DNA of 64,000 bases, from assembly GCA_036556025.1 (NCBI GenBank), contig DATBKD010000053.1, positions 20,326 through 84,325 of the forward strand, in the 5' to 3' direction. Below the pieces are notes generated by a model that made no database searches, was not told where the DNA came from, and was given only the letters and a program-made list of their open reading frames with translations. The DNA is from Gemmatimonadales bacterium (GTDB lineage: Bacteria; Gemmatimonadota; Gemmatimonadetes; Gemmatimonadales; GWC2-71-9). A program made the position numbers and the translations under genes. Below, piece after piece: positions 4,084 through 60,313 of this stretch; the first letter of the stretch is position 1, and the number at the start of each line of letters is the position of its first letter.

Positions 4084-4209
4084 AGCTAGCAGCTAACAGC
4101 TATCAGCTAACAGCTAACAGTCTTGCAAGACAGCTCTCCCGAACTCACTCGAGGAGGGCTTAGCTGATAGCTGCTAGCTGCTAGCTGTTAGCTGATAGCT
4201 GTTAGCTGT
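4084..4209. repeat. Heptamer-word inverted repeat: 5 x AGCTANC (4084-4118), 7 x TAGCTGN (4161-4209)
   Basis: Read directly. 4091-4120 is complementary to 4178-4207 with 1 mismatch in 30. The central part contains the perfect palindrome TCTTGCAAGA (4121-4130). Lies between convergent genes and starts 3 nt after stop TAG 4079-4081. Confidence 0.9.
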
Positions 4210-4277
4210 CACACTCGGTGAGACCATGCCGCTGGCCGCGGGAGCTGCTCATGGCACTGCTTTCCGGGAGGGATTGA

Positions 4278-5780
4278 TCAGGGTGCTGGCGTACTCGTCC
4301 GCGCCGACGGGCCTGATCGCTTTCGGACTGATTTCTTGGGGTTTACGCCGGTAGCCATCATTTTCTGAGGCCCCAGCTCGATGCGAAGCGCGCCCTCGCC
4401 ATGCGCAACCGCACGCACCAGCATGGCGGAAGGTGCGGCCGTGATCCCCAGGACCCGCACATCCTTGATCTTGCTCTCCAGGCGTACACCTTCGGCCAAC
4501 TCCCGATTGAGATTCTTTTCGAGAAGGTCCCGGCCCTGGTCCAGCAGATGCCGCAGCTTGATCCGAGCCCTGGTGCGAAGCAGCCGCTCCAGGTCGTCCT
4601 GCTTGAGCGATGCAAGCGCGCTGGTCAAGGCGTCGCGGGTTCCGATATCGAGCTGCAGATCGGGCATGTAGAGCTCCGCCCTGGCGGTGTCGTAGGCTGG
4701 GTGACCCACGGCATACAGAACGCCCTTCACCGGACCGCTCACCGCCACGCCGACCGCCAGCCGCCCGTCACCCACCCCGATGAGTCGTAGACTGTCCAGG
4801 CGAAGCTTATGCCTCTTCACCCGGATGTCGGTTCCCCGAAGCTGGGCCGTCAGGACACTACTGCCTTCATCATAGGTCATCCGGCCCTCGGTCAGAAAGT
4901 GAAGTCCCGGCTTGCCTGAGGCGGTGTCGTTGGGTGGCGGCAAGGGATGCTTCGACGGAGGCGGCTTGGGGCCGGTAACCACACGAGGGTCCGCCGAGAG
5001 CGCCACCCGCGTGACCAGGGTGTCCTGACGCAACTCGAGCTGGCCTATGCGAATCGCGGTAGGATTGATGCGGGCCCATACGCTGTCCGTGAGCTTGATG
5101 GGAGCCGAGAGTGCGCCCCAGACCCGTCGAGCCTCACGCGGGAGATCGAAGGAGCGGAGCTGGGCGTCAAAGTCGGCCAACTGCTTTTGAATCGCGCTTT
5201 GTGCCGCCGCCATGACCTGATCGGTGACGTCGATGTTGTCCAGGTCCGGCACCACGCAGCGGTCCCGGCTGCCGGATGAGACCGGCCGCGCCGATGCCCG
5301 TGTCTGGGCTGCGAGCGACCAGTCATCCTCGAGCTGGATGGTCGTCGTGATCGTGAGTCGAGCTCTTGGAGCGGGCCGTTCGGTGCCGCAAGAGGCGCTG
5401 ATTTCCGGAAGGAGGGGCGGCTTGTACCAGACGCGTCCCTGATAGGCCACGTCGGCCTGGACCGAGGCGGTCCGGCCCCGAAGCCCTATCCGGAATGGAC
5501 TTCGCCTGATCGCGAAGGCGTAATGCAGGCCATGTTTGCCGGGCACAGGCTGACGCTGCCGAAGGTCTCCGAAATTGGGTGGCACCTGCGATTCGAGCCA
5601 CTGAATTGCCGGACGGAGGTCGTACCGCACCGGCACGTCCATGTACGAGTGCGGTACCGGGGGCAAGGTGTCCACCCATTTGCCTCGCGCGTGCGGAACC
5701 GGCGGGGCGACCTTGGTCTCACGACAACCCCAGAGGGCGAGGAAAACCGCCCCGAGCGTGGCCATGGTGACGTGAGACAT
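4278..5780 (-). CDS. Hypothetical lipoprotein
   Basis: Internal start MSHVTMATLGAVFLALWGC (cat at 5778-5780) gives a lipobox-like LALWGC. The longer 5894 start would translate repeat and intergenic sequence. Family not recognised with certainty. Confidence 0.7.
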   Translation of the reverse strand: MSHVTMATLGAVFLALWGCRETKVAPPVPHARGKWVDTLPPVPHSYMDVPVRYDLRPAIQWLESQVPPNFGDLRQRQPVPGKHGLHYAFAIRRSPFRIGLRGRTASVQADVAYQGRVWYKPPLLPEISASCGTERPAPRARLTITTTIQLEDDWSLAAQTRASARPVSSGSRDRCVVPDLDNIDVTDQVMAAAQSAIQKQLADFDAQLRSFDLPREARRVWGALSAPIKLTDSVWARINPTAIRIGQLELRQDTLVTRVALSADPRVVTGPKPPPSKHPLPPPNDTASGKPGLHFLTEGRMTYDEGSSVLTAQLRGTDIRVKRHKLRLDSLRLIGVGDGRLAVGVAVSGPVKGVLYAVGHPAYDTARAELYMPDLQLDIGTRDALTSALASLKQDDLERLLRTRARIKLRHLLDQGRDLLEKNLNRELAEGVRLESKIKDVRVLGITAAPSAMLVRAVAHGEGALRIELGPQKMMATGVNPKKSVRKRSGPSARTSTPAP

Positions 5781-5836
5781 GGCCCAAGGTGGCGGGCCGA
5801 TGCCGGGTGAGCCATGACGGCGATCACTCAGCCGTG

Positions 5837-5850
5837 AGCTGTCAGCTGTC
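5837..5850. repeat. Two tandem AGCTGTC heptamers (same word family as 4161-4209)
   Basis: gAGCTGTCAGCTGTCagc read directly, just upstream of the lipoprotein gene start. Confidence 0.4.
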
Positions 5851-6032
5851 AGCGGCCAGTCTCTCCGGCGGGCGTACGCCACCGGATCCGGCAACCTGCA
5901 CCAGCCACCAGGGCAAGAAGCACGCGAGCTGAATCACCCGGCCGCTGATCGCGATCGCCAGCGACGCCTCGGCCGGCACCCGCGCCAACAACAACAGCCC
6001 TACGAACACTGGCGCCCGGAGCGAAGACCCTG

Positions 6033-6935
6033 ATGATGTGGGGCAACAGCCACCCGGCTCTCGACTGGATCCGGAACTGCAAGGTCTACCTCACGACCGA
6101 GCTGACCCAGGCCCGATTGGAAGAAGCCGCCCACTACCTCATACAAGAGCGTCCCACGCTCTTTGTGGGACTGCCTTCTGCCGCCGCACGGCTGGCTCGA
6201 TTCGTTGGAGCGGCCTACCCCGATGTGCCCCGCCCCGTCGTTCCCTTCGTCAAGCTCGGCGGCGAACAGATCTATCCCTTCGAGCGAGATGAAGTCGAGC
6301 GACACCTGGGCGCCAAGGTGGTCGAGTTCTACGGGTCCACCGCGATGGGCGCCATCGCGGCACAGTGTCCGGAGAGGTCCCGGCATGTGTTCGCCGAGCA
6401 CGTGCACCTGGAGATTCACCGGGATGGCAACCCCGTTCCACCCGGTGAGTTCGGTGACATCGTGGTCACCTCGCTCGACAACCGGGCAATGCCGCTCGTG
6501 CGCTGCCGCATTGGCGACCGGGGCCGCATGTCGCCGGACCCCTGCCGCTGCGGTCGACCGCATCCCGTGCTCGCCGAGCTGGTGGGCCGAGCAGCGGAGC
6601 TGTTTCTGGCCGCCGACGGCAGCCTGGTGCACGGTTCCGTCCTGGGGCAGGGGCTGCAATCGTTCCTCTCCACCGCGCAGCCGGGTGCCATCGGGCAGGT
6701 GCTGTTTCAGCAGATGGACGACAAGAGCTGGAAGGTTCTGGTCGAGAGTCAAAACCGTCTCGACGGGGGCTTGTCCGCCGGGCTGTGCGAGGTGGTGCGG
6801 ACGGCGCTGGGACGGGAATGCCGAGTGGAGGTGGAGCGGGTCGCCGTGATTCCGCGAGAGGCTTCGGGGAAGTTTCGCTACTATCGATCGGCGACTAATC
6901 CGGTTGGGAGGCGGTTGCAAGGCGGGAAACTGTAA
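6033..6935 (+). pseudogene. N-terminally truncated adenylate-forming enzyme (phenylacetate-CoA ligase / CapK / F390-synthetase-like)
   Basis: Retains EFYGSTAMG (YGxTE-like) and GEFGDIVVTSLDNRAMPLVRCRIGDRG (hinge region) plus the C-terminal SGKFRYY. It lacks about 130 N-terminal residues, including the SSGTTG P-loop expected in PaaK-type enzymes. The in-frame region upstream is closed by TGA at 5946-5948. Confidence 0.5.
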
Positions 6936-7012
6936 ACGGGAAACGGGGAACAGGCGCCCCCCATTGACCGATCCGCGGCAGCCGTTCACCGTTTACCGTT
7001 ACCTGTTTACCG
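6924..7012. repeat. Heptamer-word inverted repeat: GGGAAAC TGTAAAC GGGAAAC GGGGAAC ... GTTCACC GTTTACC GTTACCT GTTTACC
   Basis: Read directly. The arms are imperfectly complementary (GGTAAAC versus GGGAAAC). Stop TAA 6933-6935 lies inside the left arm. The right arm ends 10 nt before ATG 7022. Confidence 0.85.
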
Positions 7013-7021
7013 AGAAGCAGC

Positions 7022-7993
7022 ATGCCCGAGCCCAAATCCGCCAAGAAACCCCGCCGCTCGAAAAAGAAGTCCCAGGCCGAGCCCCGCTCCCGTGGACTGG
7101 AGGCCGATCGCCTGGCCTCGGGACCGGTACCGCAGGCCGTGGCCAGTCTCCAGGAGCAGATCATGAAGGCCGGTGGCAGCGTCCTGGCCACGTATCGAGA
7201 ACCGTTGGGAGGCAACTGGCAACTGCTGGCGAGCCTGCCCATCGATTCGGTCGAACCCACTCCCTTCCAGCGCGATCTCTCCGAAACCCATGTGACCCGG
7301 CTTGCCTCTGCTATCGAACGGCTGGAGCGATACCTCGATCCGCTGATCGTCGTCCCGGCGGAGGACGGCCGTTACTGGACCCCGAATGGCAATCATCGCC
7401 TCGCCGCCCTGCGCCGGCTGGGCGCCAAGGCGGTGATCGCGCTGGTGGTGCCGGAGATGGAGGTCGCCCATCGGATTCTTCTGCTCAACACCGAGAAGGC
7501 GCACAACGTCCGCGAGCGCGCGCTGGAAGTCTCGCGGTTGGCGGCAGGGCTGGCCGAGCTGGACGACCGCCCCGAGCGGGAGTACGAGACGGAATTCGAG
7601 GAGCCGGCCCTGCTCACCCTGGGCTTCTGCTACCAGCAGAACGGCCGCTTTGCCGGCGGCGCCTACCACCCGGTGCTCCGCCGCATCGATCAGTTCCTCA
7701 GCTCGCGGCTTTCGGAGAGCTTGAAGGTGAGGCAAGAGCGCGCGGCTCGGCTGCTGGAGCTGGATGAGGCGGTGAACGAGGCAGTGAAAGCTCTCAAGGA
7801 CCGCGGGTTCGAGAGCCCCTACCTCAAGGCGTTCGTGGTCGCCCGGATCAATCCGCTCCGCTTCAAGCGGGGCGCCACTGCCGATTTCGACGAGACCCTG
7901 GAAAAAATGCTCACTTCGGCCCGCAAGTTCGACTCGGCCAAGATTCGCGCCGACCAGGTGGCCAAGGCCAGCGGAGCCCCGGAGGAGCAGTAG
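7022..7993 (+). CDS. ParB/Srx-superfamily (ParB-like nuclease domain) protein with a basic N-terminal tail
   Basis: PIDSVEPTPFQRDLSETHVTRLASAI and TPNGNHRLAALRRLG resemble the ParB N-terminal domain. Lys/Arg-rich N-terminus KKPRRSKKKS. Confidence 0.7.
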   Translation: MPEPKSAKKPRRSKKKSQAEPRSRGLEADRLASGPVPQAVASLQEQIMKAGGSVLATYREPLGGNWQLLASLPIDSVEPTPFQRDLSETHVTRLASAIERLERYLDPLIVVPAEDGRYWTPNGNHRLAALRRLGAKAVIALVVPEMEVAHRILLLNTEKAHNVRERALEVSRLAAGLAELDDRPEREYETEFEEPALLTLGFCYQQNGRFAGGAYHPVLRRIDQFLSSRLSESLKVRQERAARLLELDEAVNEAVKALKDRGFESPYLKAFVVARINPLRFKRGATADFDETLEKMLTSARKFDSAKIRADQVAKASGAPEEQ

Positions 7994-8033
7994 GCCGACG
8001 ACAGCATACTCACCATCGCTGGAGGAAAAGCTC

Positions 8034-9029
8034 ATGGATCGACTGGGACGTGCCTCGGTCACCGCCGGGATCGCCGCGGCGCTGGGGGTCTTTTCGGCGT
8101 GCGGCCGCGAGAGGCGCGAGACGGCGCTGGACCAGGCTGCCAAACCGGATAGCACCGCGCCCGCCGAGACGGTGGGCGCCAAGCCGACGCGCATCGGCGA
8201 GATAACGGACCTCAAGCATCCGGAGTCGGTGCGCTACGATCCCGGTCTGGATGTGTGGTTCGTCAGCAACGTGAACGGCGATCCCAGCAAGAAGGACAAC
8301 AACGGCTTCATCAGCCGGATTGCTTCCACCGGCAAGATGGACTCGCTCAAGTTCATCGAGGCCGGCCGCAAGGGAGTGACTCTGAACGGGCCCAAGGGGC
8401 TGGCGATCGTGGCCGATACGCTCTGGGTGGCGGACATCGATGCGGTGCGAGCCTTCGACAAACGGACCGGCGCTCCGATCACCAGCGTGAACCTGGCGGG
8501 GAAGGTCAAGTTTCTGAACGATGCGGCAGCCGGGCCTGATGGGGTGTACTTCACCGACTCAGGCCTCAAGGGAGATGCCAAGGGACAACTCAACTACGTC
8601 GGCCCCGACCAGGTCATTCGAATCGGGCCGGACCGAAAAGCGACCTTCGTGCTCAAGAGCGACAGCATCGGCGGCGCCAACGGCATCACCTGGGTCCCCT
8701 CGCAGAAGAAGTTCCTGATCAACTCCTTCGGCAACAAGAGCATCTTCAGTTGGGCGCCGGGGGACAAGACCGCGACGGCCATCGCGACGGGCCCCGGTTT
8801 GGCCGATGGCATGGAAGTGCTCTCCGATGGGCGGATTCTGATGTCGAGCTGGGCCGACTCGAGCCTGCTGGTGGTGGAGAACGGCAAAGCGGTTCCCCTG
8901 GCCACGGGCCTTGCGACGCCGGCCGACTTCGGTCTGGACACCAAGCGGAACCGGGTCGCCGTGCCAATGATGATGGAGGACAAGGTGGAGTTCTGGGACC
9001 TTCCCTCCGGCCCGTCCGCCAACCAGTGA
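8034..9029 (+). CDS. Hypothetical lipoprotein, probable beta-propeller fold (SMP-30/gluconolactonase/LRE-like or NHL-like)
   Basis: Signal peptide ending VFSAC. Repetitive beta-strand-rich sequence. Family call is tentative. Confidence 0.6.
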   Translation: MDRLGRASVTAGIAAALGVFSACGRERRETALDQAAKPDSTAPAETVGAKPTRIGEITDLKHPESVRYDPGLDVWFVSNVNGDPSKKDNNGFISRIASTGKMDSLKFIEAGRKGVTLNGPKGLAIVADTLWVADIDAVRAFDKRTGAPITSVNLAGKVKFLNDAAAGPDGVYFTDSGLKGDAKGQLNYVGPDQVIRIGPDRKATFVLKSDSIGGANGITWVPSQKKFLINSFGNKSIFSWAPGDKTATAIATGPGLADGMEVLSDGRILMSSWADSSLLVVENGKAVPLATGLATPADFGLDTKRNRVAVPMMMEDKVEFWDLPSGPSANQ

Positions 9030-9036
9030 GGCCTAG

Positions 9037-9849
9037 ATGACGGCCAACCCGCGCGCCTCTCTCCGAGGCGCCACGTCTCACGCGGCGGTTGCCGCCCTGG
9101 CGCTGATTATCGGGGCGGCCGGGGCCCATTCGTACCGGCGCATGCTGCCGCCCGCTCCTACCACGCACGGCGAATGGGTGCACATCAAGCGTGGAGCCGA
9201 CTCCATCCGGGCCTACGTCGCCTACCCGGAGCGCAAGACCAAGGCGCCGGCTGTGATCGTGATTCATGAAATCTTCGGCCTGACCAAATGGGAGCCGACC
9301 GTGGCCGACCGGCTGGCCAAGGAGGGCTACGTCGCCATCTTGCCTGATCTCCTCTCCTCGAAATACGGCATCACGCCGCCCGATCCTGATTCGGGGCGCA
9401 AGCTGATCGAGGCGCTCGAGCCCGACCGGATCACCGCCGATCTGAACGCGACCTACTCGTACGTGAATGGCCTGCCCGCTGTGCTCAAGGATCGGGTGGG
9501 GACCATCGGGTTCTGCTGGGGAGGAGGCCAGAGCTTCCGTTATGCCACCAACAACCCCAACCTCCGCGCGACCGTGGTGTGCTATGGGCCCCCGCCCGAC
9601 ACTGCGTCAATGCGGCGGATCAAGGCGCCGGTACTCGGCATCTATGGCGAGAACGACGCGCGTATCACCACCACCCTTCCCGAGGTGAGCGCCGCCATGG
9701 AAGCCGACGGCAAGACGTTCGCCCACGAGGTCTTCCCCGGCACGGGCCACGGGTTCCTCAAGCCGGGGCGCGAGGGCTCGGACGGGCCGCAGGTGGAGCG
9801 GGCGTGGAAGCGAATTCTGGAGTTTTACCGGGCCCGCCTGGGGAAGTGA
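9037..9849 (+). CDS. Dienelactone hydrolase family protein
   Basis: VIVIHEIFGL, nucleophile region GFCWGGG, C-terminal GTGHGF. Typical DLH layout with a signal peptide. Confidence 0.85.
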   Translation: MTANPRASLRGATSHAAVAALALIIGAAGAHSYRRMLPPAPTTHGEWVHIKRGADSIRAYVAYPERKTKAPAVIVIHEIFGLTKWEPTVADRLAKEGYVAILPDLLSSKYGITPPDPDSGRKLIEALEPDRITADLNATYSYVNGLPAVLKDRVGTIGFCWGGGQSFRYATNNPNLRATVVCYGPPPDTASMRRIKAPVLGIYGENDARITTTLPEVSAAMEADGKTFAHEVFPGTGHGFLKPGREGSDGPQVERAWKRILEFYRARLGK

Positions 9850-10622
9850 GTAGGTCGTCATCGACAGCTGCGCTCGGGATGGCGGTGGCGATCGGGCTGC
9901 TCTCGAGCTGCGAACCGACTCTCCCGCCGCTTCGCGGGGCCCTCACTATCGGTGGCGAGAGCTACGTCATCTTCGTGGCCGGCACGTCACCGGCCGGCGG
10001 TGATCTCTACGCGGTAGGAACAGATGGAGGACCCGCGGTGCAGGTCACCTTTACCACCGTGGGGGAGATGCAGCCGGAGCTCTCACCTGACGGACGCGCG
10101 GTCGCCTTCCTGCGAGGCGCCTCCCTGCGCGACTCCACCCCGGGCTCGGTCTGGGTGCTGGACCTGCTCACCGGCGCCGATCGCGAGCTGTCGCTCCCGA
10201 CAGGGTCGGCCACTCCCCGCCGGGTCGGATGGGCGCCAAACGGCGCTTCGGTGGTGGTGCGCACTGACAACGGACTCTATCGCCTCGGCGCCCCGCCAAG
10301 ACCGGCGAACCCGGCCGCCATTTCGGGCGCCGGCCGCGTGGCGGCGGAGTCGAGTCTGTCCGTGCTCCTGGGAAGCCCGGTTTTTGCGCGGGTCGTCCCC
10401 TGCGCCGAACCCGGAGCACTCTGCGTGGCCGGCGATACCGGCGCACCCGGCCCACTGGCACGGAGCGCACGCGACGCGCTGCGGTGGGGAACCGATTCGG
10501 TTGCTTTCCTGATCGGTGATCAGCTCGAGGTCCGGCCGCTCGGCCCGGGCCGGGCCCGGCGGTTGCTGTGGTCAGGCTTTCCCGGTCACCCTCGGCAGCC
10601 GACCGCGTTCATCACGCCTTGA
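9846..10622 (+). CDS. Lipoprotein with TolB-like (PD40/WD40-like) beta-propeller repeats
   Basis: GTGA overlap with the DLH stop. Signal VSRSSSTAALGMAVAIGLLSSC. The motif PELSPDGRAVAF is PD40-like. An alternative ATG is at 9879. The 9579 start in the track overlaps the DLH gene and is rejected. Confidence 0.65.
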   Translation: MSRSSSTAALGMAVAIGLLSSCEPTLPPLRGALTIGGESYVIFVAGTSPAGGDLYAVGTDGGPAVQVTFTTVGEMQPELSPDGRAVAFLRGASLRDSTPGSVWVLDLLTGADRELSLPTGSATPRRVGWAPNGASVVVRTDNGLYRLGAPPRPANPAAISGAGRVAAESSLSVLLGSPVFARVVPCAEPGALCVAGDTGAPGPLARSARDALRWGTDSVAFLIGDQLEVRPLGPGRARRLLWSGFPGHPRQPTAFITP

Positions 10623-11205: not shown

Positions 11206-11291
11206 GGGTGAGAAACTAAACGGTTGAAGCCGCCCCTCCATCCCGGGTATCTTGCAAGGCTTTGTCTTTTCACTTTTTGACGGGGTCGGCA

Positions 11292-12434: not shown

Positions 12435-12437
12435 TGG

Positions 12438-14170: not shown

Positions 14171-14318
14171 CAGGCAACCGCCCCCAGAGCTCCCAGGAAC
14201 GTTCGACGGGACTGGTTCTCCACCATCTCGCACTCCTCGGGCAGTCGGAGCGGAAAAAGACTGCCGGGATTTAGGTTGGCCGGTTGCGGATGTCAACGCC
14301 ACCCCAGACCTTTGAAGC

Positions 14319-46118: not shown

Positions 46119-46128
46119 CGCCGCACGG

Positions 46129-51066: not shown

Positions 51067-51237
51067 TATGGTGGCCCCATGCTGATTCGTCTAGAAGAAT
51101 CGTTACAGCCAGCTGGTTCAACCCGCTCGCGATCGGGGAGTTACGACTGACAAGAAACGGTTCAGCGAAACGTTTTCATTTTCTCGTTCTCCAACCAGCG
51201 CGGCTGCGGGCTCGGCCCTTCCCTGATAGCTTGGGGG

Positions 51238-51552: not shown

Positions 51553-51568
51553 CTATTCCGAGGCTCCG

Positions 51569-53041: not shown

Positions 53042-53067
53042 CGTGCTCGTAACGGAGGCTCGCTGAT

Positions 53068-53862
53068 ATGGACCTCGAGCTGAGAGGCCGCAGGGCACTG
53101 GTTACCGGCTCGACCGCCGGCATCGGGTTCGCCACGGCCCAGGCGCTCGCGGCCGAGGGCGCTGCCGTCATGGTGAATGGCCGGGGCGAGGATCGAGTCG
53201 CCAGTGCCATTCGTGCCATCAAGGCCGCGGTTCCTGGGGCCCATGTGGGAGGCGTCGCCGCCGACCTCGGTACCGCAGCAGGTTGTGAGCTGGTGACCCG
53301 AGAGGTGCCCTGGGTTGATATCCTGGTCAACAATGTCGGTATCTTCGAGCCTAAACAGTTCCAGGACATTTCCGACGCCGACTGGCTTCGCTTCTTCGAG
53401 ACCAACGTGCTCAGTGGAGTGCGCCTCAGCCGGTTCTATCTGCCCGAGATGCTGGCTCGGAACTGGGGGCGCATCGTATTCGTCTCCAGCGAATCGGCGC
53501 TGCAGATTCCCGTCGAAATGATTCACTACGGCATGACCAAGACGGCGCAGCTGGCGGTGGCACGAGGGCTCGCGGAGACGACAGTTGGCACTGGCGTGAC
53601 GGTGAACAGTGTGCTGCCGGGCCCCACGGCGTCCGAGGGCGTCGGCGATTTCGTCCAGCGTCTCGCGCAGAGCCGGGGCACCGATTTCGAGACCATGGAG
53701 CGCGAGTTCTTCGCCACCGCGCGGCCCAGCTCGCTGCTCCGCCGGTTTGCCAAGCCGGAAGAAGTGGCAGCCATGATCGTCTACATCTGCAGTGCCCGAG
53801 CTTCGGCCACCAACGGCGCGGCGCTGCGAGTGGATGGGGGAGTGGTGAGGGCAGTGGTATAG
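53068..53862 (+). CDS. SDR-family oxidoreductase
   Basis: TGSTAGIGFA cofactor motif, NNVG, YGMTK catalytic YxxxK. Confidence 0.9.
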   Translation: MDLELRGRRALVTGSTAGIGFATAQALAAEGAAVMVNGRGEDRVASAIRAIKAAVPGAHVGGVAADLGTAAGCELVTREVPWVDILVNNVGIFEPKQFQDISDADWLRFFETNVLSGVRLSRFYLPEMLARNWGRIVFVSSESALQIPVEMIHYGMTKTAQLAVARGLAETTVGTGVTVNSVLPGPTASEGVGDFVQRLAQSRGTDFETMEREFFATARPSSLLRRFAKPEEVAAMIVYICSARASATNGAALRVDGGVVRAVV

Positions 53863-53870
53863 GGAACTGC

Positions 53871-54015
53871 GGTGAAGCGCGAAACGTGCAAAGTGAAGAG
53901 CGAGGGCGAGGGATGAGGAGGCCACCCCGCTGCTCCCCTTCACTCTTCACTCTCCACCCTCCAACCTCCACCCTTCACTCTTCACTTTTCACGTTTTCAC
54001 CTTCACCTTCACCCC
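53871..54015. repeat. Heptamer-word inverted repeat: purine arm (GGTGAAG...GTGAAGA GCGAGG GCGAGG...) and 11-unit pyrimidine arm (CCCTTCA CTCTTCA CTCTCCA CCCTCCA ACCTCCA CCCTTCA CTCTTCA CTTTTCA ...)
   Basis: Read directly. Outer arms: GTGAAGcgcGAAACGTGcAAAGTGAAGAG versus the reverse complement of CTCTTCACTTTTCACGTTTTCACCTTCAC. Fills the whole spacer from 9 nt after the SDR stop up to ATG 54016. Confidence 0.9.
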
Positions 54016-54231
54016 ATGAAACCCTCACTCCTCATCGGTATCGTGCTCATGCTGTTGGGTGGGTATGTGCTGGTACGCGGACTCAGCTACACCTCTGACC
54101 GTCACGAACTCAAGGTTGGAGGTCTCGAGGCCTCGGTGGAAGAGAAGCGCTCGGTACCGACTTGGGTCGGCGCTCTCGCCATCGTCGGCGGACTCGCCCT
54201 CGTGATCGCAGGCAGCCGTCGGAAGAGCTGA
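54016..54231 (+). CDS. Small two-TM membrane protein (DUF3185-like)
   Basis: Two hydrophobic helices flanking a charged loop. 71 aa. Confidence 0.6.
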   Translation: MKPSLLIGIVLMLLGGYVLVRGLSYTSDRHELKVGGLEASVEEKRSVPTWVGALAIVGGLALVIAGSRRKS

Positions 54232-54235
54232 GATC

Positions 54236-54565
54236 TTGACGTCCCGCAGTCCGGACAGCTACACCGCCATCTACCGCATCGTTCGCCGAATCCCCCGCGG
54301 CCGGGTGGCGACCTACGGACAGGTTGCTGAACTCGCCGGCCTGGCTGGCCATGCCCGCCAGGTGGGATACGCCCTTCACGCGTTGCCTTCGGGCACCACC
54401 GTTCCATGGCACCGGGTGGTGAATGCGGCGGGAGGGATCAGTCTGCGAACCTCGCCCGGGGCGGAGCTCACTCAACGCATGCTGCTCCAGCGCGAAGGCA
54501 TCCGATTCGACGCCCGTGGGCGGCTGTCGCTGGCCCGGCTGCGCTGGCGCCCTCGGGGTGCGTGA
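54236..54565 (+). CDS. Alkyltransferase-like (ATL) protein: MGMT DNA-binding domain with Trp replacing the acceptor Cys
   Basis: RIPRGRVATYGQVA and VPWHRVVN. The canonical PCHRV is PWHRV here, as in the E. coli and S. pombe ATL proteins. Confidence 0.8.
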   Translation: MTSRSPDSYTAIYRIVRRIPRGRVATYGQVAELAGLAGHARQVGYALHALPSGTTVPWHRVVNAAGGISLRTSPGAELTQRMLLQREGIRFDARGRLSLARLRWRPRGA

Positions 54566-55471
54566 GTGATCGTCCACGTGCTGGGTGTCCCCATGGACCT
54601 CGGCTCCGGCCGGCGCGGAGTGGACATGGGTCCATCCGCGATCCGAATTGCCGGCCTTTCGGACCGGCTGCGCGAGCTGGGGCACAAGGTGGTGGACGAA
54701 GGCGATTTCTCCATCAAGAACCTGGAAGAGCTCAGGGTCGGCGATGAGCACGCCAGATATCTCGCCGAGATCGCCCGGGCGTCTCGGTTAGTCTGCCGCA
54801 AGATCGAGCGGGTCATGGACCGGGGCGATTTCCCCTTGGTCCTGGGCGGCGACCACTCTATCGCGGTCGGCACTGTTTCCGGAGTCGCCGCCCATGCCCA
54901 TCGCCAACGGAAGAAGGTCGGCGTCCTCTGGATCGATGCCCATGGCGACATCAACACGCCCCAAACCTCGCCGACCGGCAACATCCACGGCATGCCGCTG
55001 GCGTCCCTCTTGGGTGACGGACCCGAGGAGCTGACGGGTGTGGGCGGTGATTTCCGCAAAGTCGACCCGGCCAACGTCGCCCTGGTCGGGATCCGCAGCC
55101 TGGACGAAGGGGAGAAAGTCCGGCTCAAGCGCTACGGCGTGCAGGTGCACACCATGTCGGACATCGACCGCCACGGCATCCACCGGGTGATGAAGAAGGC
55201 GATGGCCCGGGTAACCGACGGCACCGCGTATCTGCACGTGAGCTTCGATCTGGACGCGGTCGACCCCACGGTGGCGCCGGGGGTCGGCACCCCGGTCAAG
55301 GGCGGCCTGGACTACCGGGAGGCCCACCTGATCATGGAGCTGTTGTCCGACTCGGGCCGGATGACCTCACTGGAGATGGTGGAGGTGAATCCGATCCTGG
55401 ACGATCGGAACGCGTCCGCCACCTTTGCGGTCGAGCTGGTGCAGTCTGCCTTCGGAAAGAAGATCCTCTAG
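54566..55471 (+). CDS. rocF: Arginase
   Basis: GGDHSIAVG, DAHGDINT, SFDLDAVDP manganese-ligand motifs. Confidence 0.9.
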   Translation: MIVHVLGVPMDLGSGRRGVDMGPSAIRIAGLSDRLRELGHKVVDEGDFSIKNLEELRVGDEHARYLAEIARASRLVCRKIERVMDRGDFPLVLGGDHSIAVGTVSGVAAHAHRQRKKVGVLWIDAHGDINTPQTSPTGNIHGMPLASLLGDGPEELTGVGGDFRKVDPANVALVGIRSLDEGEKVRLKRYGVQVHTMSDIDRHGIHRVMKKAMARVTDGTAYLHVSFDLDAVDPTVAPGVGTPVKGGLDYREAHLIMELLSDSGRMTSLEMVEVNPILDDRNASATFAVELVQSAFGKKIL

Positions 55472-55731
55472 GGTACCCCTCGAAGGGCCTTGATGAACCG
55501 CAACATGTCCGCGGTGCGATCGAACACCCGCACGGCGGGATCGGCCAGTGCCCGGGCGCGTGGCTCGAGCTTGAGGTCGAGGTGCGGCCAACGCCGGTTG
55601 CCGAGCTGCAGCGCCTGCGGCGGAGCGCCGATCCGCTCCCGGAAGGTCTCCAGCTCGACCAGATCGTTGGTGGTGGAGAGGACGTGGGACCAGCCGGGCG
55701 CCCAGAGGTTCTCCCGGTCCATCACGATCAC
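55468..55731 (-). CDS. DUF4031 family protein
   Basis: WSHVLSTTNDLVELETFRERIG ... PHLDLKLEPRARAL resembles the DUF4031 pattern (WxHLxSD...LHxFA...PHYDL). Confidence 0.6.
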   Translation of the reverse strand: MIVMDRENLWAPGWSHVLSTTNDLVELETFRERIGAPPQALQLGNRRWPHLDLKLEPRARALADPAVRVFDRTADMLRFIKALRGVP

Positions 55732-55803
55732 GGGGCAGACTGGCCGCGGAGAGGATACAACTGGGTCGGGTGCATGGCGCAGGAGTATGGCACCACCCCG
55801 AGC

Positions 55804-56394
55804 CTAGGTGCAAACCAACCCCCTCTCCTCGGCCACTTGCCAGAGCGACCGCTGCAGCATCCGCCTTCCCCGGTGCAGCCGTGATCGAACCGTGCCGACG
55901 GGGCAACCCACCACATCGGCGATCTGTTGATACGAGAAATCCTCGATGAAATAGAGACTGGCAACGACGCGATACTCCCCGGGGAGCCGATCCAACGCCT
56001 CCGCCACCTGCTCTGAGTCGAGCCGGTCCAACAAGGCCGAGGCTGGATCAGGCTCCCGGCTGTGCAGGCCAGCCTCACCGGTCCGGTTGTAGAGATACAG
56101 CGGCTCCAGATCCTCGGTGCTGACGTTGGCCCGCTCGTGCTTCTCTCTGCGATGCCGGCTGTAGAACGCGTTGGTCAGAATCCGAAAGAACCAGGCCTTG
56201 AAGTTGGTCCCCTGCTCGAAGGAGGCGAATCCTCGGAAAGCCAGCAGCGCCGCGTCCTGCACCAGGTCCTCCGCCTCGGTTCGGTCGCGAGTGAGTCGGA
56301 CCGCGGTGCCATAGGCCATCGGGAGAACCGGCGCGAGCAGGGCCTCGAATTCGCCCTGGGTCCTGGTGGGTTCGACAATACCAGCCGCAATCAT
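55804..56394 (-). CDS. ECF-type RNA polymerase sigma factor
   Basis: Region 2 EAEDLVQDAALLAFRGF...FKAWFFRILTNAF. Region 4 SYQQIADVVGCPVGTVRSRLHRGR. Start ATG 56394 overlaps the STAS gene stop (ATGA). Confidence 0.9.
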   Translation of the reverse strand: MIAAGIVEPTRTQGEFEALLAPVLPMAYGTAVRLTRDRTEAEDLVQDAALLAFRGFASFEQGTNFKAWFFRILTNAFYSRHRREKHERANVSTEDLEPLYLYNRTGEAGLHSREPDPASALLDRLDSEQVAEALDRLPGEYRVVASLYFIEDFSYQQIADVVGCPVGTVRSRLHRGRRMLQRSLWQVAEERGLVCT

Positions 56395-56657
56395 GGGGCA
56401 TCCTCCCGCAGCAGCTCCGCGACCAAGGGCGAGCAATTGACGATGGAGACCGGCATCCCAGCGAGAGCGTGGAGCACCTCGACCGCCCGCTGGTCGAGAT
56501 AGCTCACCCGTCCTAGATCGAGCGACACTCGGTTCTGGGTCTCCAGGAGTGCGCGACACTCCTCTTCCAGCAGCGCGGCCCATTCCGCCACGATTTGGCC
56601 TTCAGCCTGAAGCGTGACCTCATGGGGCCGGGCGTTTATTCGGGTCAACCGGAGCAT
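56391..56657 (-). CDS. STAS-domain protein (anti-sigma-factor-antagonist-like)
   Basis: 88 aa. VSLDLGRVSYLDQRAVEVLHAL is STAS-like. Translationally coupled to the ECF sigma gene. Confidence 0.7.
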   Translation of the reverse strand: MLRLTRINARPHEVTLQAEGQIVAEWAALLEEECRALLETQNRVSLDLGRVSYLDQRAVEVLHALAGMPVSIVNCSPLVAELLREDAP

Positions 56658-56802
56658 CGATCCTCACATCGAGCGGCTATCGCCGGGGATGGCAGCCTCT
56701 TAGGCAGTGGACGTGCCAGGTCCTTCCCGGGCCAGGAGCGATCTGTTAAGTATTTGACGTTGAAATAGTTACTGCTTTCCGCCAAGCAGACTTGGGGGGC
56801 CG

Positions 56803-56839
56803 ATTGGGAGATTCCCTCACAGCCAATTGGGAATTTCCC
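56803..56839. promoter_or_regulatory. Two tandem ATTGGGAnnTTCCC palindromic boxes (candidate operator pair)
   Basis: ATTGGGAGATTCCC (56803-56816) and ATTGGGAATTTCCC (56826-56839), 23 bp start to start. The second contains the perfect palindrome GGGAAtTTCCC. Lies in the divergent region between the STAS-ECF operon and the gene at 56945. Confidence 0.45.
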
Positions 56840-56944
56840 AAGTCCTGGGAACGGCGCTGTGAACTGGATCCTCGATCCTCCAGGATTCCGGCTACATTTT
56901 TTCTTTTCGTCCGCACGCTTGGGATCAGCTATGGGGGTACTGCG

Positions 56945-57310
56945 ATGACATCACCGGAGAGTCCTGATCGCGACATCCCACCCGCGTCGAACTGGGTGGC
57001 TTCGTGGGAGACAGAAGACAATTACTGGCATGAGAACTTCAGCAGCCTGCCCTATGCCCCTGGGCCGGACTACTATGACCGGTTCCGCCCCGCGTTTCGG
57101 TACGGCGTCGAGTCGGCTTCTCACAGCCTGGGGCGAAGCTTTAACGAGGCCGAGTCCGACCTCGCGCAAGGGTGGGAGCGCTACCAGCATCGGGGTGAGC
57201 AGCCGGCGGCATGGGAGGAAATCAAGGAGGCGGTTCGGGACGCGTGGAATCGAATAACCGGTGCCCGAACGGCCGAGGCCGAAGGGCGAAAACCCCAGAT
57301 CCGCGAATAA
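56945..57310 (+). CDS. Hypothetical small soluble protein (121 aa), Trp/Tyr-rich
   Basis: ATG 56945. Motifs YWHENF...PYAPGPDYYDRFRPAFRYG...WEEIKEAVRDAWNR. The upstream TTG-start extension covers T-rich non-coding sequence. Confidence 0.6.
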   Translation: MTSPESPDRDIPPASNWVASWETEDNYWHENFSSLPYAPGPDYYDRFRPAFRYGVESASHSLGRSFNEAESDLAQGWERYQHRGEQPAAWEEIKEAVRDAWNRITGARTAEAEGRKPQIRE

Positions 57311-57347
57311 GGGCAGCACACCGCAGCCAACGTGACATATTTCGAGC

Positions 57348-58481
57348 ATGGCTGACGCCATCCGCGATCTGTTCTTCGGGCTTCCCACGCGGGAGCTGGT
57401 CGAGGCGATTACACCTCGCCGCTCCTTCGAGGACGTGGTGCTTCCGACCACGACCATGCGATCGCTCAACCACGCGCTCGCTCTGGTCCGCAAGCACGAC
57501 CTGATCTTCCATCAGTGGGGACTCGCGGAACGACACTCGACCGGCCTGGGCCTGGCGTTTCATTTCGCGGGGCCGCCCGGGACCGGCAAGACTATCTGCG
57601 CCGAGGCCCTTGCCTATGCGCTCAACCGCAAGCTCCTGGTGGTGCGCTACGCCGAAATGGAGTCCCGCTGGGTAGGGCAGACGGGCCGGCACGTAGCGAC
57701 AGTCTTCCGTGCCGCTGCCCAGCAGGATGCGGTGCTCTTCTTCGATGAGGCGGACGCCATCGCCGGGCGGCGGTTTACCTCGGTAAGCGCGGGCTACGAG
57801 CGGGAGGCGAACTCGATCGTGGACGTGCTGCTGCACGAGCTCGAAGCTTTCCCGGGCGTGGTCATCTTCGCCACCAATCTCGCCGCCAACATCGACCCCG
57901 CGTTCGAGCGCCGGATTCGCACCCACATCCTGTTCGAGATGCCCAACGAGGAGGAGCGGGAGTTGATCTGGCGGGTGCAGCTCCACTCCCGCAAGACTCC
58001 CCTGGCCGCGGATGTGGACTTTCGGGCCCTGGCCGAGGCTTATCCGCGGAGCGGCGGCGACATCAAGAACGCGGTCCTCAAAGCCGCGCAGATCGCCACG
58101 ACCGAGCCGGGCCCCGACTCGGAGAAGCAGATTCACCAGCGTCACTTCGTCCAGGGCATGGAGGAGGTCATCGCGGCCGAATCGGTGATGGCTCAATCGC
58201 TCTTCGATACGGCGCCCAGCGGTCCCGCGGCGGCGATGGGCGTGCTGGAACAGCTGGCCGAGGGGCAGGAGCAGCTGCGGGCTGAAACCGGGCTGCTGGC
58301 TGAACGACTCGAGGGCCTGAACCGGGCTCACTCCAGCCTGGAACGCACTCACGCCGAGCTGAAGGCAAGGGAAGCCGTCCAGACCCTGGCCTGGAAGGGC
58401 CGGCTGCAGGTTTATCTCGGCGTCGCGCTGCTCCTCTCGGCCGTCGCCCTCATGCTCTCCCTGCTGCGCTGGGTTCTGTGA
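57348..58481 (+). CDS. AAA+ ATPase with C-terminal coiled coil and transmembrane anchor
   Basis: Walker A GPPGTGKT, Walker B VLFFDEAD, sensor/Arg-finger region NLAANIDPAFERRI. C-terminal heptad-like region then LQVYLGVALLLSAVALMLSLL. Confidence 0.85.
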   Translation: MADAIRDLFFGLPTRELVEAITPRRSFEDVVLPTTTMRSLNHALALVRKHDLIFHQWGLAERHSTGLGLAFHFAGPPGTGKTICAEALAYALNRKLLVVRYAEMESRWVGQTGRHVATVFRAAAQQDAVLFFDEADAIAGRRFTSVSAGYEREANSIVDVLLHELEAFPGVVIFATNLAANIDPAFERRIRTHILFEMPNEEERELIWRVQLHSRKTPLAADVDFRALAEAYPRSGGDIKNAVLKAAQIATTEPGPDSEKQIHQRHFVQGMEEVIAAESVMAQSLFDTAPSGPAAAMGVLEQLAEGQEQLRAETGLLAERLEGLNRAHSSLERTHAELKAREAVQTLAWKGRLQVYLGVALLLSAVALMLSLLRWVL

Positions 58482-58488
58482 CGGTGGA

Positions 58489-59352
58489 TCAGCGCTTTCG
58501 CAGCAGCACGTCTTCGCTCCTGATGTTCGGCCCCACCAACAGTACCATCAGCCGCGATTCGTAGCCCGGGGCGCTCACCCGCACGTACTGAGTCCGGCAA
58601 TTGTCTACCAGAGACAGATCGAACCGGAAGTGATATTCGCCCTGCTCGTCGGTGAAGGTCACGTAGGGTGTGCCCAGCATCTGGAGATGTGCGCCGGCCA
58701 GCGGTCGGCCGTCATTCTGCCGGAAGATCTTTCCTTGCACCACCCCGAACTGGATGGGGCCTGCGGAATCCCGGGGTGCGACCGGGTGGGGGATGCAGCG
58801 CTCCGGGTTATCCGGGAGATAGGCTTCCATCGGACGTGAGGCCTGAGGACCTGCACCCGGGCGGGGGCCCAAACGCGGCCGGCCGAAGATTCGGCGAGCC
58901 TCCGACTCCATCGTCGCCTCGGGCTCAGGGGATGGCGCCGGCGCTGGTGCACTGGGCGTAGCGGTGCCGGTCGGGCTGCCGCCGATGGGCTGCTTGGGCG
59001 CCTCCTCACCTTCGCTGCGCTTGGCCTCCGGTGGTGCGTTCGCCTCCGGCTCGGGCCGGGGCTGAGCCTTTTTCGGTGGCGGGGCCATCAAGCGGGGAGG
59101 CGGCTTGGGTGACTCCAGCCTTGGCGGCGGCGGAACCACCCGGGGCCGCGGTTGGGGAGGGGGTAGAGGTACGTAGATCATCTCGACCTGCCGGTTTGGC
59201 CGGGCCGCCCGGTTCTCCTCGTCCGCAGGCAGAACCTCCCCCTGCCGGGAGTGCTGAATGACGAGCAACAGGATCAGCACGTGCACCCCGCTGCTGACGG
59301 CGAGGGAGAACCAGGGTCGCTTTTTGGCGAGGGGGTCCGGCGATTTGAGCAA
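58489..59352 (-). CDS. Membrane-anchored Pro-rich protein with C-terminal carboxypeptidase-regulatory-like (CarboxypepD_reg) domain
   Basis: TM (VHVLILLLVI), PPPQPRPRVVPPPPRLESPKPPP linker, C-terminal VQGKIFRQNDGRPLAGAHLQ...DEQGEYHF. Proposed TTG start at 59352. The ATG at 59463 would translate the repeat arm. Confidence 0.65.
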   Translation of the reverse strand: MLKSPDPLAKKRPWFSLAVSSGVHVLILLLVIQHSRQGEVLPADEENRAARPNRQVEMIYVPLPPPQPRPRVVPPPPRLESPKPPPRLMAPPPKKAQPRPEPEANAPPEAKRSEGEEAPKQPIGGSPTGTATPSAPAPAPSPEPEATMESEARRIFGRPRLGPRPGAGPQASRPMEAYLPDNPERCIPHPVAPRDSAGPIQFGVVQGKIFRQNDGRPLAGAHLQMLGTPYVTFTDEQGEYHFRFDLSLVDNCRTQYVRVSAPGYESRLMVLLVGPNIRSEDVLLRKR

Positions 59353-59360
59353 AGAAGTAT

Positions 59361-59515
59361 GCAGTAAGTGGTTAGCAGTAAGGAGAAAGCAGTGACCAGT
59401 TTCTAAAAGTAAGGAGTGAGGAGTGAGGAGTAAGGAGGAGCAGTGTGAAACGCGGGAGCACACCTTACTCCTTACTCCTCACTCCTTACTTTAGACTGCT
59501 CACTGCTTACTGTCC
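59361..59515. repeat. Long heptamer-word hairpin: ...GTAAGGA GTGAGGA GTGAGGA GTAAGGA... loop ...CCTTAC TCCTTAC TCCTCAC TCCTTAC...
   Basis: Read directly. 59409-59435 pairs with 59463-59489 (27 positions, 1 G-T). Outer segments GCAGTGACCAGTTTCTAAAA / TTTAGACTGCTCACTGC extend the stem. Occupies the entire divergent spacer and ends 2 nt before ATG 59518. Confidence 0.9.
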
Positions 59516-59517
59516 TT

Positions 59518-60246
59518 ATGGAATTGGCTGCCTGGACCCCATACGTCGCGGCGATGCTGGCCTACCACAATGGTGCGCGGGACGCCACCATCGTGGTCTA
59601 CGATGATTACGAACGAGACGAAGCTCCCATTGGGTACTTCTACCGGGAGCCGGCCGATTTCCCACTTCTGGAATGCCGGGCCCTGGAGCTCTGCCGGGGA
59701 CGCGTGCTCGATATCGGCGCCGGGTCCGGCTGTCACGCCCTCGCGTTGCAGCAGCGGGGGCTCGCGGTAACCGCGATCGAGGTGGCGCCTGAGCTGGTCG
59801 AGATCCTCCGCGCGCGCGGCGTCCGAGATGCCCGGCTCGCGACCTGGATGGATTTCGAGGCCGAGCCCTACGACACGGTCTTCATCATGATGAACGGCGT
59901 AGGTCTGGCGGAGACTCTTCCCGGGCTGCGGCCTTTTCTCCGGCGGCTGCGCACGCTGATTCGCAGTGACGGGCAGGTGCTGGCTGATTCGACCGATGTC
60001 GGGGTGTACCTGGACCCCGAGGCCGGCCGAACCGGCAGGCTGGAGCGCCCCGACGGCCGTTACCTCGGCGAGCTGCATTTTCAGTTGGAGTTCGAGGGGA
60101 GAAAGGGAGCGCCGTTCTCGCAGCTCTATGTCGATCCCGGCACGCTCAGCCGGCACGCCGCGGCCGAGGGGTGGGACTGCGAGATTCTCCTGCCTCCGGA
60201 TGAGTACGGCCACTACCTGGTGCGACTGGCGCCCAAAACGCCGTGA
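59518..60246 (+). CDS. Class I SAM-dependent methyltransferase
   Basis: Motif I VLDIGAGSGCHALAL. Post-I acidic residue (AIE). Confidence 0.8.
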   Translation: MELAAWTPYVAAMLAYHNGARDATIVVYDDYERDEAPIGYFYREPADFPLLECRALELCRGRVLDIGAGSGCHALALQQRGLAVTAIEVAPELVEILRARGVRDARLATWMDFEAEPYDTVFIMMNGVGLAETLPGLRPFLRRLRTLIRSDGQVLADSTDVGVYLDPEAGRTGRLERPDGRYLGELHFQLEFEGRKGAPFSQLYVDPGTLSRHAAAEGWDCEILLPPDEYGHYLVRLAPKTP

Positions 60247-60313
60247 GCAATGAGCAGTGACAGGTACGAGGCGGCGCTCCTCCTTACTTCTCACTGCTCA
60301 CTGCTTACTGAGG
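60243..60313. repeat. Heptamer-word inverted repeat: GTGAGCA ATGAGCA GTGACAG GTACGAG ... TCCTTAC TTCTCAC TGCTCAC TGCTTAC
   Basis: Read directly. The methyltransferase stop TGA (60244-60246) is in unit 1. The stop of the convergent cphA-like gene (60298-60300) is in the right arm. Confidence 0.88.

Follow-up and report, generated by a model that had tools for sequence, protein, structure and literature searches.

The 64,000-nt window analyzed here (Gemmatimonadales bacterium, GenBank assembly GCA_036556025.1, contig DATBKD010000053.1, positions 20,326 to 84,325 of the forward strand) contains a dispersed family of intergenic elements, most of them long hairpins in which a tandem array of a short word, usually of 7 nt, is followed after a loop by an array of its complement. 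Such arrays are a lineage-wide feature of Gemmatimonadales, in which they form an abundant, structured class of intergenic repeats. They share an anatomy and a preferred period, lie between genes and close to stop codons, and are handed, with the G-rich arm first; their copy number and words turn over between species, and their words change in concert. Long imperfect stem-loops can form in either strand of the DNA and in transcripts arriving from either direction. We propose, with moderate confidence, that these hairpins are generated by slippage, homogenized by recombination, and persist as stem-loops without a U-tract at the 3' ends of genes.

Arrays in the window were located with Tandem Repeats Finder (TRF), their arms were paired with an inverted-repeat finder, and folds were scored against dinucleotide shuffles (Table 1). 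The window has a G+C content of 64–69%. Seven of nine loci are long hairpins with arms of tandem 7-nt (once 9-nt) words, z scores of about -2.2 to -10.5 and minimum free energies (MFE) down to -79 kcal/mol. Their stems measure 20–45 bp and their loops 6–77 nt. The inverted-repeat finder returned stems of up to 42 nt, among them 31 nt at 97%, 30 nt at 97% and 27 nt at 96% complementarity, which bears out the near-perfect stems of 27–30 bp described in the original prediction, made from the letters of this stretch. That prediction assigned one architecture to all nine loci; this holds for the seven hairpins, which fold beyond their shuffles, but the arrays at 5828–5853 (fold z +0.55, complement score 6, the chance level) and 14963–14989 (fold z +1.02, complement score at chance) stand alone without a partner arm. 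The accompanying claim of a different word at each locus went too far. The window words are AGCTAAC, RGTRAGN, GTGAAGN, GGGAAAC and TAAGGGCGG, the RGTRAGN core is common to the 14963, 31724, 53871, 59353 and 60243 loci, and the 5828 array reuses the word of the 4160–4209 arm. Open reading frame (ORF) callers do translate the hairpins, as had been noted; a 70-aa ORF at 53886–54098 reads the 53871 hairpin as ...FTLHPPTSTLHSSLFTF.... On L089 (L numbers designate the other loci and contigs compared with the window), the JGI gene call gives the minus-strand gene a GTG start corresponding to position 59463, within the 3' arm.

To place these loci in a wider context, we combined the window with 67 related high-G+C loci, giving a clade set of 68 sources and 1.07 Mb. 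The arginase of the window (54593–55471) is 95% identical to that of a Gemmatimonadales metagenome-assembled genome (MAG) and about 80% identical to those of dozens more, which places the window in this order. A preference for particular periods was evident at both levels. The window has six strong arrays of period 7, none or one at the other non-multiple periods and two at period 14, compared to none in each of 20 Markov-1 simulations. The relatives have 39 arrays of period 7 and 57 of period 8, versus 0–9 at periods 4–6 and 9–11; periods 12, 13 and 15 yielded 8, 2 and 13 arrays, and the 25 arrays of period 14 are period 7 detected again. Although 88% of the DNA is coding, 40 of 53 period-7 arrays (75%) and 41 of 65 period-8 arrays (63%) are non-coding, while arrays of periods 6 and 9 in the clade set lie mostly within genes. 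A scan of related genomes had been proposed with the original prediction, and it confirmed both the intergenic excess, relative to 12% non-coding DNA, and the bias toward stop codons described below. A complementary partner within 220 nt (score of at least 12, the 99th percentile of the null being 11) accompanies 56 of 97 non-coding arrays, compared to 5 of 46 coding arrays. At least one array was found in 33 of the 68 sources, and the clade has at least 56 distinct words with periods of 7, 8 and 9 nt, the commonest being GGGAAGC, CGGGGAAA, CGGAACT and GCCGAGCC. A heptamer hairpin (TTGGGAT/GGGATTT, then AAATCCC) with the same G-then-C order also occurs at 401–488 of L087, a Terriglobales MAG of the Acidobacteriota, and the architecture is therefore not confined to Gemmatimonadota.

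The elements are positioned closely with respect to gene ends. Gene context in the window was taken from Pfam and NCBIfam, JGI gene calls on identical contigs and a codon-usage caller; genes of the relatives were called with a self-trained codon-usage caller. Six flanking genes of the window have their stop codon inside an arm, and three start codons come 0–9 nt after a 3' arm. In the clade set, arrays that face a stop codon lie a median of 3 nt from it (42 of 50 within 15 nt, 44 of 50 within 50 nt), and for arrays facing a start codon the median distance between array end and start is 21 nt, the start-codon distances being approximate. The original prediction was therefore correct in placing arms at stop codons and, in some cases, near the next start. 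Its remark that elements take up entire spacers was likewise supported, and this is often the case. It had also reported the elements between genes of all three orientations. Each orientation is indeed represented in the window and in the clade, but the distribution is skewed: of the window's four convergent spacers measuring 30 nt or more, three hold a hairpin, and across the window and relatives tandem hairpins occupy 6 of 64 convergent spacers (9.4%), 20 of 319 co-directional spacers (6.3%) and only 2 of 111 divergent spacers (1.8%; 26 of 383 for the others). These counts show that tandem hairpins are tied to spacers containing the 3' end of a gene.

Intrinsic terminators, including bidirectional ones, are comparable in that a stable stem-loop lies just downstream of genes and is often shared by convergent genes. 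However, their stems are 5–15 bp and their loops 3–8 nt, and the elements described here are larger, lack a U-tract, and also occur upstream of starts and, rarely, between divergent genes. The predicted lack of a U-tract was verified, with a T-run after the stem in none of the seven hairpins. Canonical hairpin-plus-T-tract terminators were at chance level in the window, at sites other than the seven stems, and the tandem hairpins are therefore the only strong structures that we found at its gene ends. A search of positions 1–20000 and 44001–64000 for sigma-70 consensus promoters gave none, with about two expected by chance. In the same regions, a Shine-Dalgarno (SD)-like 4-mer precedes 33% of predicted starts versus 17% of controls; the starts at 7022, 54016 and 59518, which directly follow a pyrimidine-rich arm, have no SD.

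The presence of stop codons within the arms had suggested that the elements act as translation barriers, with words selected for TGA, TAA or TAG such that three units would stop translation in all frames on both strands. Most window words do hold a stop, the six genes that end inside an arm fit the idea, and in the window all frames are closed by 8 of 14 'entering' arms versus 2 of 14 'exiting' arms. However, this asymmetry follows automatically from the purine-rich and pyrimidine-rich composition of the arms. The clade offers a marginal excess: 24 of 93 non-coding period-7/8 words (26%) have a stop on the G/R-rich strand, where letter shuffles would give 18.6 ± 3.1 (P = 0.055). All three frames are closed by only 20 of the 93 arrays, the 9-nt word holds a stop in one frame only, and the commonest clade words are free of stops. 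It had been stated beforehand that the idea would fall if stop triplets were not conserved across loci, and this was the outcome. Of the explanations considered here we judge selection for translational stops to be the least probable.

The most regular property of the arrays is their handedness. In adjacent pairs a G-rich array precedes a C-rich array in 21 cases and follows it in none; 16 of these pairs are complementary, and five consist of non-complementary words. Lone arrays follow the same geometry by 11 to 1, such that a G-rich array adjoins the gene on its own 5' side and a C-rich array the gene on its own 3' side. The rule extends to non-repetitive intergenic hairpins, in which the 5' arm is the G-rich one by 42 to 8 (19 to 7 without the GTCAYCC family introduced below), and hairpins inside genes show no bias (78 versus 85). 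The purine-rich arm had been predicted to lie always 5' on the plus strand. The order is indeed invariant, but it is no strand bias, as it holds on both strands: the reverse complement of an arm A, a loop and the reverse complement of A again begins with A and ends with its reverse complement, and purine-arm-first is therefore a handedness of the element. No G-to-C switch was seen after stops or before starts once the arrays were masked, which indicates that the handedness does not arise from the general composition of spacers.

It is conceivable, although we regard it as unlikely, that these regularities reflect a sequence-free, handed design for gene ends, in which any tandem word would serve provided that the G- or purine-rich arm comes first and its complement follows. 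Such an element could be a bidirectional, U-tract-independent terminator in Gemmatimonadales, and perhaps in other high-G+C lineages without U-tract terminators, and the concerted change of word and period would point to an active homogenizing or writing process and not to independent slippage. A transcript arriving from either side would make the purine-rich 5' arm first, and then the pyrimidine-rich 3' arm. Hybrids of purine RNA with pyrimidine DNA are reportedly much more stable than the converse. The RNA:DNA hybrid formed by the pyrimidine-rich arm would thus be of the weakest class, and it would lie under the polymerase during synthesis of the 3' arm, when the hairpin would strip the RNA off the polymerase without a U-tract.

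Comparison of orthologous spacers, as had been suggested with the original prediction, revealed both presence/absence and turnover of words. Variant units within arrays are grouped into blocks, as in TAGGCGGG x9 and then TAAGCGGG x6. L073 and L075, which are 92% identical, differ in unit number at every orthologous array. The two-tier plan of the 59353 hairpin is kept in L090 and L091 (about 85% protein identity) with other copy numbers, and the 53871 hairpin is absent from L009 (84% identical), which has (ACCAACG)x3 in its place. The spacer upstream of arginase is filled with a hairpin from stop to start in six species (L066, L069, L070, L073, L074 and L075); four different tandem words are represented among them, and the hairpin of L070 is an unrelated palindrome. 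Within one genome a word can recur at several loci, which in the window lie as much as 45 kb from each other. At four orthologous spacers, L066 has 8-mers (CGGGGAAA) and L073 and L075 have 7-mers (CGGGAAR), and both spacers that flank arginase show a switch from GGCGATTR to GGCGGCTC in L073. The recurrence of words and their change in concert require exchange between arms and loci, or repeated replacement, and are not explained by local slippage alone.

A second dispersed palindrome family, GTCAYCCYGAGCGNAGCGAAGG...CCTTCGCTNCGCTCRGGRTGAC (GTCAYCC), is represented by 47 half-sites in 20 related sources and by none in the window; a literature search for the palindrome sequence gave no match. Sites include L090:997-1087, L091:122-219 and L070:9876-9948, and there are many in L011, L026 and L028. 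The GTCAYCC element fills a spacer in L070 that carries tandem hairpins in other species. The L090 and L091 orthologs of the 59353–59511 heptamer hairpin have it inserted in their loops, which indicates that mobile palindromes exist in the clade and use the same target sites. Genomes rich in GTCAYCC tend to have few tandem arrays, and the reverse.

This raises the possibility that the tandem hairpins are themselves mobile, resembling repetitive extragenic palindromes (REPs and REPINs) or transposable elements of the miniature inverted-repeat kind (MITEs), with cassettes spread by a transposase such as one like RAYT, and with word families as the traces of successive waves. The tandem words are specific to genomes, and one word has taken the place of another at orthologous spacers of genomes with 92% identity, as such waves would predict, and the nested GTCAYCC element and the inverse abundance of the two families also fit. 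However, loci that share a word have unrelated loops and flanks, each locus has its own copy number and unit variants, and lone arrays and mixed-word pairs occur. Neither conserved or shared termini, nor GTAG/CGTC tags, nor target-site duplications or other flanking direct repeats were present at the loci. Moreover, a gradient of words within an array (GGCGGTTG to GGCGGTTA to GGCGATTA) indicates change in place, and the first unit in L075 and L066 is similar to the 3' end of the gene itself (GGTGGATTAG vs GGCGATTAG), suggesting local seeding. We therefore consider a mobile origin improbable.

The explanation that we favor, slippage with homogenization, may be divided into four steps. First, replication slippage would grow, shrink and re-word the arrays. 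Second, recombination or template switching would keep words alike between arms and between loci, resulting in concerted evolution. Third, selection against frameshifts would restrict arrays to spacers, in which deletion pressure would trim other DNA and leave the arrays at ORF boundaries. Finally, arrays would last mainly in 3'-end spacers, where they may serve as direction-independent stem-loops in the formation or protection of transcript ends; since many lie within 15 nt of a stop codon, they could also interfere with the terminating ribosome in the manner of REPs.

Several observations weigh against this scheme. Neither slippage nor recombination accounts for the handedness. Within the sampled population, in which identical contigs occur in several soil metagenomes, no changes in array length were found at 6923, 53871, 59353 or 60243 (at the 53871 locus, eight other metagenome contigs match the window except for one single-nucleotide polymorphism, SNP, in two of them), and the 31724 locus showed only a 3-nt indel; the sole exception was a spacer longer by 7 nt in one sample. 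The arrays are therefore not hypermutable on short time scales. The stems also show no RNA-level signature. Mismatches compatible with G·U pairing in co-directional stems number 37 on the sense and 35 on the antisense strand, giving no signal of an RNA strand, and antisense RNA folds better at all three co-directional loci of the window (-39.3 vs -36.5, -37.9 vs -33.0 and -68.7 vs -56.7 kcal/mol). In a significance test, the order of unit variants in one arm mirrored that of the other in 0 of 18 hairpins, which gives no indication that a single exact register of pairing is selected for. These strand and mirror results favor an origin of the complementarity at the DNA level. The strongest hairpin (59353–59511) is flanked by divergent genes, a setting in which a role at 3' ends would be meaningless, and it has nevertheless been kept in two relatives. 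Lone arrays exist, and the five non-complementary pairs in G-then-C order did not exceed their shuffles in folding; hairpin formation is therefore not the sole organizing principle.

The population samples also gave observations on individual loci. In the sample with the longer spacer (3300043331), the stop-to-stop spacer between the methyltransferase and Mur-ligase genes is 58 nt, compared to 51 nt in the window (60247–60297) and L089; the additional 7 nt, known from spacer length alone, is the size of one heptamer. Strain differences cluster in the 31724 hairpin (31749–31773; L117 and L119), in the form of the SNP C31749A, the loss of 3 nt from the 5' arm and a SNP in the loop, and the flanking 2.3 kb has 0–2 differences. 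Near the 53871 hairpin, about 324 nt of the SDR gene (window 53326–53649) are missing from the closest MAG (L009:1840-1841), due to either a deletion or mis-assembly.

The main rival, to which we assign a smaller but still appreciable likelihood, is that the arrays are a neutral or mildly selfish by-product of a slippage bias of the lineage for 7–8-nt units, functionless and tolerated wherever no gene or promoter is broken by them. The lack of a strand-specific RNA signature and of mirrored unit order would be expected in that case, as would the rapid turnover of words and of presence/absence among relatives that are about 84–92% identical, the concentration of strain polymorphisms in the 31724 hairpin, and the array-free state of about half of the related loci; tolerance alone also predicts the depletion from divergent spacers. 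However, neutrality predicts neither the 21:0 handedness, nor the same rule in lone arrays, nor the sharp accumulation of arrays 0–5 nt from stop codons. Furthermore, in six species a hairpin of some kind runs from stop to start upstream of arginase despite differences in sequence, and the two-tier design at 59353 has been kept in three lineages, which neutral tolerance alone would not lead one to expect.

The strand-neutral complementarity would also fit sites that act as DNA, such as G-quadruplexes (G4) or i-motifs, which have been proposed for Xanthomonas, or arrays to which a nucleoid or regulatory protein binds. GGG tracts occur at 7–8-nt spacing in many clade words (GGGAAGC, CGGGGAAA, TAGGCGGG), and oligonucleotides from the Xanthomonas repeats discussed below form G4 in vitro (PMC4692102). 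However, G-tracts are missing from most of the words in the window (AGCTAAC, AGTGAGG, GTGAAGN) and from many of those in the clade (CGGAACT, GGCTATT, GACGGTC), and G4 is therefore not the common denominator; the 56 or more distinct words argue against a single sequence-specific protein. We regard binding sites of this kind as very improbable.

The original prediction did not recognize the elements as a described family. This needs to be revised, since the GGGAATC heptamer arrays of Xanthomonas campestris and X. axonopodis have the same architecture (Rehm et al. 2015, PLoS One, PMC4692102). Those arrays have 2–26 copies, are approximately 90% intergenic, and include about 70 inverted pairs per genome, in convergent orientation, that could form stem-loops or cruciforms. 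The G-rich array lies 0–50 nt from, or over, a stop codon and the C-rich array just before starts; arrays are rare between divergent genes, and their length and sequence vary between close species while their location is kept. Essentially a single word is used (GGGAATC / GGGANTN); it has the potential to form G4, and four units are preferred (PMC4692102). Heptamer tandems beyond chance, non-coding bias, convergent G-then-C pairs, placement at stop codons and divergent depletion are all shared with the elements described here. However, we found no single conserved G-tract word with a four-unit preference, and GGG is present in only some words. Instead, several words per genome, mostly without G-tracts, contribute to the diversity of words and periods in the clade, species differ by concerted changes of word, the stop codons of neighboring genes regularly fall within arrays, and handedness is also seen in non-repetitive hairpins. 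The Gemmatimonadales elements thus have the complete architecture of the Xanthomonas type, but not its word. What is new is the multiplicity of words, the periods of 7–9 nt, the concerted turnover of words, and a handedness common to ordinary hairpins; the architecture itself was already known.

Other repeat classes are less similar. The REP, BIME and REPIN elements of Enterobacteria and Pseudomonas are also extragenic imperfect palindromes that follow the 3' ends of genes, many of them 1–20 nt from the stop codon, and are rare between divergent genes. REPs are said to stabilize the mRNA upstream of them. When they lie no more than 15 nt from a stop codon, they stall the terminating ribosome (Liang 2015, as cited in PMC12306157). 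REPs, however, are copies of one 20–40-nt sequence with a GTAG/CGTC tag that is spread by RAYT, whereas the elements here have internally repetitive arms with a variable number of units and no conserved sequence, tag or loop. We found no near-identical palindrome copies, as loops and unit orders differ at every locus, and no tag, the arms beginning with AGCTAG, GGGAAAC, GTGAGAA, TAGGGCGG, GGTGAAG, CAGTAAG and GTGAGCA. A search of the whole window against Rfam at gathering thresholds gave no match, and no tRNAs were found.

Short tandemly repeated repetitive (STRR) sequences of heterocystous cyanobacteria have the words CCCCAGT, TTGGTCA and CAACAGT. Like these, the TAACTGA repeats of Beggiatoaceae and cyanobacteria are intergenic tandem heptamers; TAACTGA contains two stop codons and is located at ORF boundaries, mostly just upstream of starts (MacGregor 2015, PMC4679880). 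In BOGUAY, one set among 170 is inverted, and the repeats are predicted to have no secondary structure (PMC4679880). Both kinds are direct repeats of a fixed word in other phyla with other base compositions, whereas the arrays here have different words, are paired in inverted orientation, and belong to Gemmatimonadales. Heptamers are also the commonest long simple sequence repeats of large bacterial genomes (Mrazek, Guo & Shah 2007, as summarized in PMC4679880). This class, LSSR(5-11), consists of tandem units of 5–11 nt that are longer than expected by chance, occurs in large non-pathogen genomes and has been proposed to originate by slippage, all of which is consistent with our arrays; the summary in PMC4679880 makes no mention of inverted pairing, stop placement or handedness.

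Table 1. Tandem arrays and hairpins of the window, with their repeat units, gene context and predicted folds (MFE in kcal/mol).
Feature	Position	Units	TRF array	Gene context	Fold
Hairpin	4084-4209			Convergent	4078-4215; z -7.7; MFE -77.6
5' arm	4084-4120	(AGCTAAC)x5.3 (TRF, inverted repeats)	4084-4120	First base 3 nt past TAG stop (4079-4081) of plus-strand gene 3248-4081
3' arm	4160-4209	(TTAGCTG)x7.1, complements 4084-4120	4160-4209	Convergent minus-strand DUF4403 gene (Pfam), stop at 4278
Lone weak array	5828-5853	(TCAGCTG)x3.7, TRF score 38	5828-5853	Divergent spacer or 5' end of DUF4403 gene
Hairpin	6923-7012			Co-directional; upstream stop within 5' arm	6918-7016; z -2.2
5' arm	6923-6951	GGGAAAC/TGTAAAC	6923-6951	Variant unit at 6933-6935 supplies TAA stop of gene 6033-6935
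3' arm	6982-7012	CCGTTTA/CCGTTCA	6982-7012	Ends 9 nt short of ATG 7022 of next plus-strand gene (JGI gene calls)
Lone array	14963-14989	(AGTGAGG)x3.9	14963-14989	17 nt upstream of ATG 15006 of isochorismatase-family gene; holds TGA (14979-81) of doubtful ORF 14319-14981
Hairpin	31724-31809			Co-directional; upstream stop within 5' arm	31722-31812; z -2.7
5' arm	31724-31752	GTGAGNN/GTAAGNN	31724-31747	Second unit holds TGA stop (31737-39) of LeuA-like gene
3' arm	31772-31809	Degenerate CTCACTT/CTTACTC	31777-31802	Next gene a co-directional pyridine-nucleotide-disulphide oxidoreductase
Hairpin	36867-36917			Convergent; whole 44-nt spacer; stops of both neighbors in the two arms	36860-36922; z -3.7 on plus strand, -5.9 on minus strand
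5' arm, 9-nt word	36867-36893	TAGGGCGGG/AAGGACGG/TAAGGGCGG		Holds TAG stop (36868-70) of GCS2 gene
3' arm, 9-nt word	36899-36917	(ACCGCCCTT)x2.6	36894-36917 (period 9)	Holds TAA stop (36915-17, minus strand) of convergent gene 36915-37982
Hairpin	53871-54015			Co-directional; 3' arm reaches next ATG	53866-54015; z -6.5
5' arm	53871-53910	Degenerate GTGAAGN/GCGAGGG		Begins 9 nt past stop of SDR gene 53068-53862
3' arm	53933-54015	(CTTCACT)x10.9 with CTCCACC variants	53938-54012	Ends at ATG 54016 of 71-aa membrane protein gene
Hairpin	59353-59511			Divergent; strongest hairpin; spans spacer between CarboxypepD_reg (minus) and methyltransferase genes; TTG 59352 conserved in two relatives	59360-59509; z -9.5; MFE -79.3
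5' arm, two-tier	59353-59437	Outer CAGTAAG/CAGTGAC, inner (AGTRAGG)x4	59408-59445	Adjoins conserved candidate TTG start 59352 of minus-strand CarboxypepD_reg gene
3' arm, two-tier	59459-59511	(CCTYACT)x4, then CTCACTG/CTTACTG	59463-59490	Ends 6 nt before ATG 59518 of methyltransferase gene
Hairpin	60243-60313			Convergent; each arm holds one neighbor's stop codon	60238-60316; z -4.6
5' arm	60243-60266	GTGAGCA/ATGAGCA/GTGACAG		First unit holds TGA stop (60244-46) of methyltransferase gene
3' arm	60285-60313	(ACTGCTC)x3.6	60286-60310	Holds TGA stop (60298-300, minus strand) of convergent Mur-ligase gene

Several features in the vicinity of the arrays should be mentioned. The lone array at 14963 adjoins two overlapping ORFs on opposite strands that both score as coding, one on the minus strand (12989–14710) with an Omp85 C-terminal domain and one on the plus strand (14319–14981) without a family hit; which of them is real decides whether this array follows a stop codon or lies in a promoter region between divergent genes. 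At 18859–18905, the 39-nt spacer of two minus-strand genes (stop at 18906, start near 18866) is filled by a hairpin without repeats, of 22 bp and with a 3-nt loop, just as other spacers are by tandem hairpins. A 21-nt tandem repeat at 20668–20764 (GCTGGACCGGAGCCGGGTGGT x4.6) lies inside the minus-strand ORF 19958–21199 and is probably a coding repeat. Among the related loci, L019:1-473 has a 174-bp perfect inverted repeat at a contig end, which is most likely an artefact of short-read assembly.

The elements bear on both the handling and the biology of these genomes. Arrays are points at which short-read assemblies break or collapse, as illustrated by contig L005, which ends inside the 53871 hairpin, and hairpins of this kind now give rise to false peptides and shifted start calls. 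The joint change of word and period at dispersed loci offers a tractable case of concerted evolution in bacterial non-coding DNA. The handedness, which holds on both strands, in lone arrays and in ordinary hairpins, and also in Xanthomonas, is a clean regularity. If the elements are functional, they would supply a rule for annotation and would define the ends of transcription or translation in a major, little-studied soil phylum, in a window without canonical terminators.

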